64,000 nt of DNA, taken from contig CAWBMP010000004.1 of NCBI GenBank assembly GCA_963790025.1, forward strand, positions 1,536,001-1,600,000, written 5' to 3'. Below are positions 61,006-63,860 of the stretch, piece after piece (within the stretch, counting starts at the first letter, position 1; every line of letters starts with the position of its first letter). Below the pieces are notes generated by a model. That model saw nothing but the letters and a program-made list of their open reading frames with translations, was not told where the DNA came from and did no database searches. A program made the position numbers and the translations under genes. This DNA is from Nitrospirota bacterium (GTDB taxonomy: Bacteria > Nitrospirota > Thermodesulfovibrionia > Thermodesulfovibrionales > Dissulfurispiraceae).

Positions 61006-62445
61006 TCACACAATCGGTTTGAATTGTTTCATCATAGCTGGTTTCTTATCCAATATTTCAGAGATCAGCCATATAGTGACTTCGTTCTGAAACTTTTGAA
61101 TCTTACAACCCTTTTCGTAAGGCATTTTAAGGTCGCCATTGTACTGGACATTATTCGCCGGGCACAATCCGCCACAGAGATACCTGGACCAGCAACTGAT
61201 GCACTCCTCACACTGGAACACAAAACCCCTCAACTGTTGACATAACCTGTTCTGTTTGTCAATCTTGAGACCGGTGTCGACGTCCCCTAGCTTGTATTCC
61301 TCGATGCCGACAAAGCCCATGCATGGGTAAAGATCTCCTGATCCTGAGACGCAAAGGCTATTGATTCCTGCACCGCAGGGCGTGGTTTTTGGAGTTTCAT
61401 AATACACCTTGGCTATGTTATTGCTCATCACGACATCGGTTGCATTGTCCTTTTCCAACAACTCCTTCAAATAGAAGTGTGCAAACCTCAGATATTCTTT
61501 CTTCATGTCCTCTAAATCTTCGTCAGAAATGACAAAGTTGCCGTTTCCATTAAAGAGCTTGCTTGCCTCATTTGCAAATCCGACCTCGACATCGGGAAAG
61601 CCCATGTTTTCGAGGAATTTGTAAACCTCCAGTTTTTTCAAATTTGGCGGCGCAAGAGTCGCTTTAATGGATACCCCGACTTCATTGGTGTCCATTACCC
61701 TTAAAACATTCGAAATGACAGTATTCCAGCTTCCCCTTCCATCCTGATACGGGCGATTGAAATTGTGGTTTTCTTTGGGCCCATCGAGGCTTACACCTAT
61801 ACTCAGCCTCCTGGACCTCAAAAACTCGATGATCTCATCGTTCATTACCGTCCCGTTAGTTGTGAGCTTGTAGTCAAACTTTCGAATGCCCCGGTCTTTT
61901 ATTTGATTGCAATAGTCTATGGTAGACTTTATAACCTCGAAATTCAGAAACGGTTCTCCGCCGTAAAAGTCCACCGTGATTTCGTCGTTCTCAGTTGAGT
62001 GCTGCACGAGAAAGTCAATCGCCTTTATCGCGGTCTCTTTGCTCATTTTCCCTTCACTTTTTCTGACGTATTTACCGCCGTCGTTCCAGCAGTATCTGCA
62101 ATGCAGATTGCATCCGGCGATCAAGTTCAAGGTGAAAGTTACAATCCGTGTCTTGAAGTGTATGTTTTCCGGCGGGAAGTAAGAATGTTTGGTTTTTTGA
62201 AACAGCACCCCTCTTCGTTCCAAATCCCGAATTTCTGCCATGGCGTCTTTAACCGCCACTTTCGGGTATTTACCGTGAAGCTTCTGCAGGATATCGGAAT
62301 CTGAGTTAATGTTCCACAATTCAAGGACATCTCTTGCCACGGCATCGATCCTGAAAAACTTCGCGCTCTCGACATCAAAAAGCAGCGTCGTGCCCTCAAT
62401 ATCAAAGATATGCACCTGCTTGTCTTTTAAAGTCTGCATCATCAT
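61006..62445 (-). CDS. RRE-radical SAM-SPASM peptide maturase (CteB/ranthipeptide-synthase-like)
   Basis: N-terminal VHIFDIEGTTLLFDVES (RRE-like), CNLHCRYC, FYGGEP, TTNGT, SLDGP, and SPASM CGAG...GDLYPC...CISC....LCGGLC...GC. Start at the ATG overlapping the upstream TGA. Confidence 0.92.
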   Translation of the reverse strand: MMMQTLKDKQVHIFDIEGTTLLFDVESAKFFRIDAVARDVLELWNINSDSDILQKLHGKYPKVAVKDAMAEIRDLERRGVLFQKTKHSYFPPENIHFKTRIVTFTLNLIAGCNLHCRYCWNDGGKYVRKSEGKMSKETAIKAIDFLVQHSTENDEITVDFYGGEPFLNFEVIKSTIDYCNQIKDRGIRKFDYKLTTNGTVMNDEIIEFLRSRRLSIGVSLDGPKENHNFNRPYQDGRGSWNTVISNVLRVMDTNEVGVSIKATLAPPNLKKLEVYKFLENMGFPDVEVGFANEASKLFNGNGNFVISDEDLEDMKKEYLRFAHFYLKELLEKDNATDVVMSNNIAKVYYETPKTTPCGAGINSLCVSGSGDLYPCMGFVGIEEYKLGDVDTGLKIDKQNRLCQQLRGFVFQCEECISCWSRYLCGGLCPANNVQYNGDLKMPYEKGCKIQKFQNEVTIWLISEILDKKPAMMKQFKPIV

Positions 62446-63860
62446 TGTTTCTGAAGCGAAGAGGTGCACTTCTTTATTTGAAGCGCTATGGTGCACTTAT
62501 CAAACTCGGCAGAATTCCTGCATTTGTTTGTCTTCTGCTTATCAGAAGTGCACTTATTTACCTGGATTTCAATGGTGCAATTGTCTAACTTTTCAGCAAC
62601 TGTGCACTTGTTATCTATCTGGGCATTGGAAGTGCACTTATCTACTTGTGTTGTATTGTCGCATTTATCCCATTGCGCCGCATACGTGCACTTATTGTAT
62701 TGTTCAGCTGCGCCGCATCGATTATTCTGCAGTTCAATAGTGCACTTGTTGAACTGTGCGTCTATAGTGCATTTATTGTATTGCGCCTGATTGGTGCACT
62801 TGTTTACGTTTTCTTCCGCAACACATTTATCAATTTGCGCTGCCGTAGTGCACTTATCAAGCTGGTACGCAACCGTGCATCTGTTGGTCTCGGCAGGAGT
62901 CGTGCATTCGTTCGTTCTCTGCTTATCTGATGAGCACTTGTTCACTTGTATTTCCGCTGTGCATTTGTCGATTTGAGCATCAGAAGTGCACTTATCAATC
63001 TGGTACGCAACCGTGCACCTGTCGAGCTCGGCGGCTGTCGTGCATTTCTTTGTTTTCTGGTTACCGGATGTGCACCTGTCTACTTGTGCCTCTGTTGTGC
63101 ATTTGTCGATTCGTGCCTCGACAGTGCACTTATCAAGCTGATACGCAACTGTGCAGTTGTCGACCTCGGGAGGAGACTGGCACTTGTTTGTTTTCTGGGT
63201 ATCGGAAGTGCACCTGTTTACTTGTCCCTCTATCGTGCACCTGTCAATTTGCGCTGCAACCGTGCACTTGTTGATCAGCTCATCCACGGTACATCTGTCA
63301 AATTGCGCTGCAACCGTGCACTTATTGAATTGTTCGTTCATAGTGCATCTATTGTACTGTGCCGCACCGGTGCATTTATTTATATGTGCCGGCATGGTAC
63401 ATTTGTCCAGCTGTGAATCTCTGCTGCAATTATTGAACTGATACGCAATCGTGCACCTGTCAATATCGGCAGCACTCTCGCACTTGTTTATTTTCTGGTT
63501 AGCGGAAGTGCATTTGCCTACTAGTCCCTCTACAGTGCATCTGTCAAATTGCGCTGAAATCTTGCACTTATTGAATTGTGACTCAATTGTACATCTGTCA
63601 TGTTGCGTATTTGAATTGCACTTGTTGATCTGTTCCGGTATAGTGCATTGATCACGTTGTGTATCAGTGATGCATGGCCTTTCTTGTGTCTCTAATTTGA
63701 ATTCCTGCAGATTTTCTCTCCGGGTTGCAGCAGTTATTTTCCCGTCAGTTTCAGATTCGTGACTGCCGGCGCTGTGACCTTCCGCATCAATGTTTGACAA
63801 AGGCACGATATGTTTCGATTTAGAAACAACTTTCCCTTTTTTTATTCCCTTTGTTTTCAT
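62442..63860 (-). CDS. Cys-repeat protein: 62-aa leader plus 45 Cys-led repeat units; putative giant substrate of the adjacent radical SAM enzyme
   Basis: Long clean ORF with RBS AAAGGGGGAG, a Cys every 9 or 10 residues from position 63, and an ATGA overlap with the maturase. Confidence 0.85.
   Translation of the reverse strand: MKTKGIKKGKVVSKSKHIVPLSNIDAEGHSAGSHESETDGKITAATRRENLQEFKLETQERPCITDTQRDQCTIPEQINKCNSNTQHDRCTIESQFNKCKISAQFDRCTVEGLVGKCTSANQKINKCESAADIDRCTIAYQFNNCSRDSQLDKCTMPAHINKCTGAAQYNRCTMNEQFNKCTVAAQFDRCTVDELINKCTVAAQIDRCTIEGQVNRCTSDTQKTNKCQSPPEVDNCTVAYQLDKCTVEARIDKCTTEAQVDRCTSGNQKTKKCTTAAELDRCTVAYQIDKCTSDAQIDKCTAEIQVNKCSSDKQRTNECTTPAETNRCTVAYQLDKCTTAAQIDKCVAEENVNKCTNQAQYNKCTIDAQFNKCTIELQNNRCGAAEQYNKCTYAAQWDKCDNTTQVDKCTSNAQIDNKCTVAEKLDNCTIEIQVNKCTSDKQKTNKCRNSAEFDKCTIALQIKKCTSSLQKQ
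62445..63674 (-). repeat. Coding tandem repeat with a 27/30-bp period
   Basis: GTGCAC/GTGCAT motif (Lys/Arg-Cys-Thr codons) recurs every 27 or 30 bp; units diverge, including at synonymous positions. Confidence 0.9.

Follow-up and report, generated by a model that had tools for sequence, protein, structure and literature searches.

A Cys-every-9 repeat protein and a CteB-like radical SAM/SPASM enzyme in a Nitrospirota genome: a two-gene cassette proposed for poly-thioether maturation

A 64,000-nucleotide (nt) stretch of DNA from a Nitrospirota bacterium (assembly GCA_963790025.1, contig CAWBMP010000004.1, positions 1,536,001 to 1,600,000), referred to here as the window, carries two overlapping genes on its minus strand. 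One (62442..63860) encodes a 472-amino acid (aa) protein with a Cys at every ninth or tenth residue over most of its length. The other (61006..62445) encodes a 479-aa radical S-adenosylmethionine (radical SAM) enzyme with a SPASM domain. The locus raises the question of whether the repeat protein is a substrate of the enzyme, and if so, which chemistry is involved and whether the product is one intact chain or many short peptides. The explanation favored here, at a probability of roughly 60%, is that the two genes form a cassette for poly-thioether maturation of the intact repeat protein, as suggested by sequence comparison, modelling and analogy with characterized enzymes.

The repeat protein starts with a basic, Cys-free leader of 62 aa (63675..63860) that has no signal peptide. 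The core (62445..63674) begins with the first Cys, residue 63, and consists of 45 Cys-led units, 38 of 9 aa, 6 of 10 aa and a final 8-mer, with the consensus C-T-x-x-x-Q-hydrophobic-[DN]-[KR]. Thr is found at +1 in 34/45 units and Gln at +5 in 34/45, with Asp/Asn at −2 in 41/44 and Lys/Arg at −1 in 39/44. This anatomy and these residue counts had been obtained by hand in an earlier, sequence-only reading of the window, and all are correct on recount. A purine-rich ribosome-binding site is present 5′ of the gene. The TGA of the repeat gene (62444-62442) overlaps the ATG of the enzyme gene (62445-62443), an ATGA coupling; a GTG start at 62496 for the enzyme was set aside and the ATG at 62445 is preferred.

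The Cys periodicity of the core is not due to chance: the run at a spacing of 9-10 comprises 45 Cys, compared with a maximum of 7 when the core was shuffled 10,000 times. In all six frames of the whole genome, no other open reading frame (ORF) has a periodic Cys run above 7. The protein matched no family in Pfam or NCBIfam. A five-unit block of 138 nt is internally duplicated in the core, with four copies at spacings of 138, 138 and 300 nt that are 68-73% identical in DNA sequence to the reference copy. The unit number of the window copy has grown by duplication. Segments of the repeat gene are matched at 99% or more by contigs from a public DNA run, but these possibly derive from the source sample and so are not independent. 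No RNA data set is listed as holding the sequence, which has no bearing on its expression. As a separate observation, two related short frames with a Cys every 5-7 residues are located on G000 C4 near 509893 (+) and 1218948 (−); these are probably the opposite strand of a two-copy repeat gene.

The enzyme had been described in the earlier reading as CteB-like, with a recognition element of the type found in maturases of RiPPs (peptides made by the ribosome and modified after translation), and the alignment bears this out. The closest solved relative is CteB (E 9e-65, residues 10-462), with the similarity including the N-terminal RiPP recognition element (RRE) region. The RRE-like domain, at approximately residues 1-85 (62191..62445), aligns with the N-terminal domain of CteB (5WGG) and has modelled interface residues at 21-40 and 64-80. 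The radical SAM motif C112-x3-C116-x2-C119 (62089..62112) is invariant in 21/21 rows, and the SPASM domain (61105..61377) has seven Cys, at 357, 375, 415, 418, 424, 428 and 447, that match those of CteB. An additional Cys, C365, aligns with an Ala of CteB and is a Cys in only 10/21 rows. With Pfam models the radical SAM barrel passes its cut-off (PF04055, 56 bits; cut-off 29.5), the match to PqqD is weak (E 0.082), and SPASM shows no match at E 0.1. The enzyme is below every NCBIfam cut-off (best 25 of 71 families). Its top models are the SCIFF, QhpD, nif11 and PapB maturases, with 278.6 bits against a cut-off of 425 for SCIFF (TIGR03974), 274 against 453 for QhpD (TIGR03906) and 258 against 340 for PapB (NF047865). 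The CrpC model (TIGR04463) gives 99 bits against 525, the CXXX-repeat model (TIGR04115) 121 against 350 and the Cys-every-fifth model (NF038107) 115 against 600.

A protein search with the enzyme yields 21 proteins at 41-99% identity, beyond which the score falls from 351 to 279 bits. These 21 proteins and the enzymes of six loci described below group as one clade (27 rows, SH-aLRT 99), separate from the SCIFF maturases, in a quick maximum-likelihood tree with 55 rows. The window enzyme shares its own branch with P0001, P0003 and P0004 (73-77% identity), and its reading frame agrees with theirs. The three radical SAM and seven SPASM Cys are kept in all full-length clade rows. Viral contigs contain no clade enzyme (best 29%) and plasmids none at E 1e-60. 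One database protein, P0002, is the window enzyme over residues 1-370, followed by a frameshift and a stop at 394 aa with loss of six SPASM Cys, which represents an assembly error or a strain variant. A sister clade (L008-L017, L083, L084) consists of CteB-like enzymes of 30-33% identity, mostly from sequences titled Omnitrophota or Planctomycetia, several of which lie among other radical-SAM-like genes. Their aligned rows have the profile WYASTA at the six active-site positions considered below.

Scans of genome and metagenome collections gave 159 loci, of which 158 match the clade profile and 6 are clade members (>500 bits). Two of the six are titled Krumholzibacteriota, one Eisenbacteria, two are uncultured (of the phylum of L003) and one is a metagenome. 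A Cys-every-9 gene is found immediately upstream and on the same strand in 6/6 clade loci (L003-L007, L082), and in 0/85 of the other radical SAM loci (non-clade, each flanked by at least 1.5 kb on either side). Homologues of the enzyme within the clade thus do sit beside Cys-periodic ORFs; their absence there would, by the sequence-only reading, have spoken against the proposal. Enzyme and repeat also co-occur in the same 4/201 genomes of the L003 phylum and in the same 1/390 genomes of the host class, namely this genome; the enzyme is present in 1/10 genomes of the phylum of L006. A repeat without the enzyme, which would have counted against a functional link, was not found in the 591 genomes searched. 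Because the positives themselves went into the repeat profile, only its negatives are informative, and the pairing counts, which are not independent among kin and represent three or four lineages, leave out P0001, P0003 and P0004 as well as P0005, P0006, P0020 and P0021. The enzyme/repeat pairing is conserved and rare. L085 (41% over a fragment, without a repeat gene) was considered as a counter-example and rejected, as it belongs with the sister clade (76% identity) and not with this one.

Searches made directly with the repeat protein are nearly blind, and their blanks do not show absence. A genome scan confirmed no match, a single-sequence search found none, and the Atlas gave no usable match. 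With phmmer, 32 matches were obtained among 1.84 billion representatives; of 15 examined, P0132 and P0140 are true fragments and the other 13 are unrelated low-complexity repeats. A profile search returned P0132 only.

The leader contains the sequence HIVPL at residues 17-21, within a putative RRE-binding strand, residues 15-22 (SKHIVPLS; 63795..63818). Leaders of the relatives have H-[IMV]-x-[ML]-I-G after the signal region, although the segments were picked around His and the invariance of His is thus by construction. The SCIFF precursor of locus L170 starts with MKHIKT, and the CteA leader binds its RRE as a strand (PMC8326336, PMC6231123). When leader residues 8-41 are modelled in complex with the enzyme, the score is 0.79, compared with 0.01 for the best control, and leader residues 15-22 lie on residues 28-37 and 64-80 of the enzyme. 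The mark used for such models is reached by 116/157 solved and 2/215 mismatched pairs; runs of this model share at least 50% of contacts, and the pLDDT value (the predicted score in a local distance difference test) is at least 49 for the partner. The leader motif may therefore dock on the RRE. Since a like complex has already been solved, however, the model may merely reproduce it and speaks for likeness to CteB-CteA rather than for binding.

Modelling of the full-length repeat protein by AlphaFold2 gives no usable fold (pLDDT 38.6). When seven units are modelled, each forms one short helix (pLDDT 66, predicted template modelling score 0.37). Fold searches with this model, which is of moderate confidence, revealed nothing clear (best Z 3.1, root-mean-square deviation 3.7, 61 residues aligned), and a PDB sequence search with the repeat profile gave no match below E 0.09. 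The prediction of a regular short-helix array without any cross-link would be compatible with a protein that the enzyme leaves unmodified, with its Cys in disulfides or bound to metal, and whose neighborhood has another reason; export signals in the relatives, described below, could bring its Cys to an oxidizing compartment. The modelled docking of the leader on the RRE points the other way, as does the failure to find the repeat apart from the enzyme in the 591 genomes. In addition, the odd Cys counts (45 here, 31 in three relatives) cannot all pair, and the window copy is without a signal. We consider an unmodified protein very improbable; together with a decaying cassette, discussed below, it is the alternative that fits worst.

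If the repeat protein is a substrate, the reaction has to be considered. The seven-Cys SPASM domain leaves an open site for a substrate Cys at auxiliary cluster I (AuxI) in CteB (PMC8326336, PMC6231123) and also in CrpC (PMC13692751). A set of six catalytic-proximity residues has been defined on CteB as F112, F152, T186, S210, H363 and Q364 (PMC10288494). At these positions the clade has W-Y-T-S-[MIL]-G and the window enzyme W-Y-T-S-M-G, compared with F-F-T-S-H-Q in 8/8 SCIFF-type rows and Y-F-T-S-H-R in a QhpD-named row. Positions 3-4 are thus the same as in CteB and positions 1-2 are aromatic. As judged by these alignments and the tree, the enzyme is CteB-like in architecture, lies outside the CteB family and differs in the AuxI-adjacent loop. 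Thioether formation, which the sequence-only reading had proposed, is likely from the architecture but not assured, because two of the six CteB catalytic-proximity residues are lost.

This loss leaves room for a different reaction on the same substrate, such as Cys oxidation, or a C-C or another cross-link whose Cys stay available for metal. The His and Gln/Arg by the AuxI Cys of the SCIFF and QhpD rows are replaced in the clade by a hydrophobic residue and Gly, the six positions can reportedly overturn predictions made from full-length sequence (PMC10288494), and the best hidden Markov model (HMM) scores are far under their cut-offs. Nevertheless, the SPASM domain has seven Cys as in CteB and CrpC, unlike the fully ligated anSME type, whose models score much lower on the enzyme (114 bits), and Cys is the sole invariant residue of the unit. 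A non-thioether reaction is therefore regarded as unlikely.

For the favored thioether reaction, an acceptor residue can be sought in the unit. Asp/Asn at −2 and Gln at +5 are the features common to the window copy and the relatives. Thr next to Cys, to which the earlier reading had drawn attention, is characteristic of the window copy (74% of 38 nine-mers) but not of the family (26% of 149 nine-mers), and Thr at +1 was rejected as a family-wide acceptor. The +2 position is Ser/Thr in 72% of relatives' units, versus Ile/Val in 48% of those of the window copy. Gln occupies +5 in 71% of units in the window copy and 58% in the relatives, the remainder being often Lys, Arg, His or Glu. Units of 10-13 residues (n=34) separate two possible registers: Gln is at +5 of the upstream Cys in 22/34 and at −4 of the next Cys in 1/34. 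Gln is also at +5 after the very last Cys in 6/7 proteins. Thus Gln is tied to the upstream Cys, and the long-unit test rejects it as an acceptor for the following Cys. PapB follows a Cys-x3-Asp rule, and Asp at +4 occurs in 0/45 window units. The Ser/Thr-x-x-Gln pattern in the units resembles a helix N-capping box, and Gln may also be conserved for folding. In vitro, CteB forms a Cys32-Thr37 link, with the two residues five apart (PMC8326336). From conservation and this analogy, the most likely acceptor would be residue i+5, usually Gln; an acceptor at +2 (Ser/Thr/Val/Ile) is less likely.

The repeat proteins of the six relatives are 350-361 aa long, with 30-33% identity to the window protein and 30-32 core Cys. 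Their register is almost fixed: in 5/6 it consists of two long units, seven or eight 9-mers, a 10-mer, fifteen 9-mers, a 12-mer, three 9-mers and a 13-mer. Units compared between genomes show a likeness of 0.33 at the same position versus 0.19 at other positions. Differences between two relatives' repeat genes by codon position are 41/43/75, mostly in the third position, as for a selected coding gene. Behind one and the same ribosome-binding site, the repeat gene reads ATG in L007 but ATC in its close relative L004 (L004:1187-1189), which is an alternative start or a sequence error.

These data bear on a second proposal of the sequence-only reading, that of a multi-core RiPP precursor whose thioether rings are cut out as a library of related 9-mer macrocycles. 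A RiPP-like leader and RRE, Lys/Arg before most Cys in the window copy and the rise in unit number by duplication are what such a precursor might show. However, Lys/Arg at −1 falls to 30% in the relatives, the register and the irregular units are kept in place across two phyla with position-specific conservation, and there is no spacer or recognition motif between units. A partial scan of 17 neighbouring ORFs moreover found no peptidase or ABC transporter family. The library is thus disfavored, and we regard it as quite improbable. For the same reasons the product would probably remain intact.

The relatives also differ in export. The absence of a signal peptide noted earlier holds for the window copy, where hydropathy over 13 residues peaks at 0.21, with no hydrophobic signal region and no twin-arginine motif joined to one, but it does not extend to the relatives: 6/6 have RRxF[LIV] and a hydrophobic stretch (hydropathy 1.4-1.7) at the N-terminus, resembling a twin-arginine translocation (Tat) signal. 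A Tat-like signal on the substrate of a cytoplasmic modifier fits export after modification. In 6/6 relatives the enzyme gene is followed by a third gene, which encodes a homologous protein of 630-680 aa with 35-46% identity to the L005 copy. CARDB, PPC and type IX secretion system (T9SS)-type C-terminal domains are present in the four of six scanned.

The window genome encodes TatC, yet its repeat protein lacks the Tat motif. The third gene was not found with one query in this genome, which is 98.8% complete, and the database enzyme copy P0002 is frameshifted after residue 370. The window cassette could accordingly be viewed as a decaying remnant that has lost the signal peptide and the third gene. 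Both frames are intact, however, with all ten cluster Cys, and the coupling and leader motif are kept. Three enzyme relatives at 73-77% on the same branch indicate an old lineage rather than a recent copy of the Tat-bearing form, and the Cys spacing has survived duplication and divergence to ~70% DNA identity. Decay is hardly probable.

In the poly-thioether explanation, the RRE would grip the short His-led strand of the leader, as modelled, and the radical SAM core with its open AuxI site would join each Cys sulfur to a carbon within the same unit, a step proposed because of analogy with CteB, PapB, QhpD and CrpC. The product would be a multiply cross-linked rod of short helical units. In the relatives it would be made in the cytoplasm, exported by Tat and placed next to the co-encoded surface protein; the copy of the window genome, with more units and neither signal nor third gene, would stay inside or leave by some unspecified route. 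A structural or metal-binding role for the product is a guess. A more specific version is tentative and rather doubtful: the clade, with a hydrophobic-Gly loop in place of His-Gln/Arg, would processively install a Cys-to-Gln(i+5) thioether in nearly every one of 31-45 units and so give a continuous stapled helical rod of 35-50 kDa, which some lineages would export by Tat and display with the T9SS-type surface protein while others would retain it. If true, this would mean a new acceptor residue, the highest ring count per chain found and a genetically encoded covalent polymer.

Several observations weigh against the poly-thioether explanation or parts of it. CteB His363-Gln364 correspond to Met376-Gly377 in the window enzyme, with Met/Ile/Leu and Gly clade-wide. 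Sister-clade enzymes keep all ten cluster Cys, yet no Cys-rich partner is seen nearby; therefore the architecture alone is no proof of peptide thioether chemistry. No acceptor position is invariant, and CteA made in vivo is reported to be linked Cys32-Thr34, at +2 (PMC8326336). Four of the six relatives belong to a single phylum. The signal-less form is represented by one genome. The Tat assignment consists of motif and hydropathy, and no Tat-signal HMM match was found in the five of six precursors scanned.

The surroundings of the cassette show no link to the pair. Downstream are ACT-domain and DUF711 genes, and upstream are hypothetical, nitroreductase, PAS and DinB genes. In a genome of the same genus the downstream two-gene block sits in a different context, and the cassette borders are not fixable from this comparison. 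Promoter and terminator scans at the locus were at chance level or uninformative. Just past the window end, 292 nt upstream of the repeat gene and on the same strand, is a 173-aa ORF (L001:10152-10673, −) with a signal-like N-terminus and no Pfam match.

Other radical SAM loci seen in the scans carry Cys-rich frames of different kinds. In genome G031, of the same family, a 105-aa ORF (L163:370-687, −) with a twin-arginine N-terminus and six Cys adjoins a distant radical SAM/SPASM enzyme (L163:758-2176, −; profile FFTSMR), a probable further exported thioether system. A 210-aa twin-arginine ORF with 15 Cys (L090:1486-2118, +) is upstream of a distant radical SAM/SPASM gene. An ORF with 17 Cys spaced 3-4 apart (L105:29-490, +) lies ~5.4 kb away from a radical SAM gene of weak similarity and resembles a CXXX-repeat precursor.

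No description of the window family was found in the literature searched, which took in the text of the CrpA supplements but neither figures nor most subscription papers, nor the supplements to PMC10288494 (15,000 enzymes). Tested enzymatic thioether cross-linking of large proteins is limited to very few cases, QhpC and CrpA. With this family one could ask how a single enzyme anchored by its RRE gets to dozens of sites as far as 400 residues away, whether thioethers can form on Gln and what role the CteB-type His/Gln loop has. Having two genes and no signal peptide, the cassette is easy to express, and with Lys/Arg before 39/44 Cys, trypsin should free single units so that each ring is readable by mass spectrometry.

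Among known systems, CteB with its SCIFF substrate CteA (TIGR03974/TIGR03973; PDB 5WGG, 5WHY) is the closest whole-length structure and has the same cluster Cys. It shares a His-led leader strand (KHIKT in L170, KHIVP in the window leader), and the motif C-T-V-A-x-Q is common to the SCIFF C-terminus and several window units. The window enzyme differs in its score (279/425), its separate clade and the replacement of His363/Gln364. Its substrate has 472 aa and 45 Cys, compared with ~45 aa and six Cys for SCIFF, and no SCIFF-type precursor adjoins the enzyme. QhpD (PMC13692751, PMC10114670) likewise acts on a protein, QhpC, with several Cys-to-methylene links and an RRE-bound leader; its three links are to Asp/Glu, the subunit is non-repetitive, and no qhp operon genes are among the neighbours examined. 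The PapB/freyrasin (NF047865), CXXX-repeat (TIGR04115) and Cys-every-fifth (NF038107) families also combine regularly spaced Cys with a radical SAM/SPASM-linked precursor, but differ from the window system in Cys period.

The nearest parallel in design is CrpA of Methanococcus voltae, a 298-aa protein with 11.7% Cys (35 Cys) in ten 17-residue repeats, in which CrpC installs ranthionine links, up to four in one six-Cys fragment; the greater part of the chain escaped mapping (PMC13692751). In both systems an enzyme with an RRE, a radical SAM core and a seven-Cys SPASM domain is encoded next to a large Cys-repeat protein that carries a recognition region at its N-terminus. CrpA repeats are rich in Ala/Gly/Asp and predicted to form a beta-helix, whereas the window protein has a 9-residue polar Gln/Asn/Lys/Thr unit, one Cys per unit (45 Cys in all) and predicted short helices. 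The window enzyme scores 99 bits with TIGR04463 (cut-off 525), there is no CrpB-like gene, and the relatives have a Tat-like signal and a secreted third gene. Given the CrpA precedent, poly-thioether proteins are a known kind, and the window substrate is 1.6 times larger than CrpA, not several times larger than characterized precursors as first supposed. If the poly-thioether explanation is correct, the family would be a second, unrelated lineage of such proteins, built from a simple one-Cys unit.

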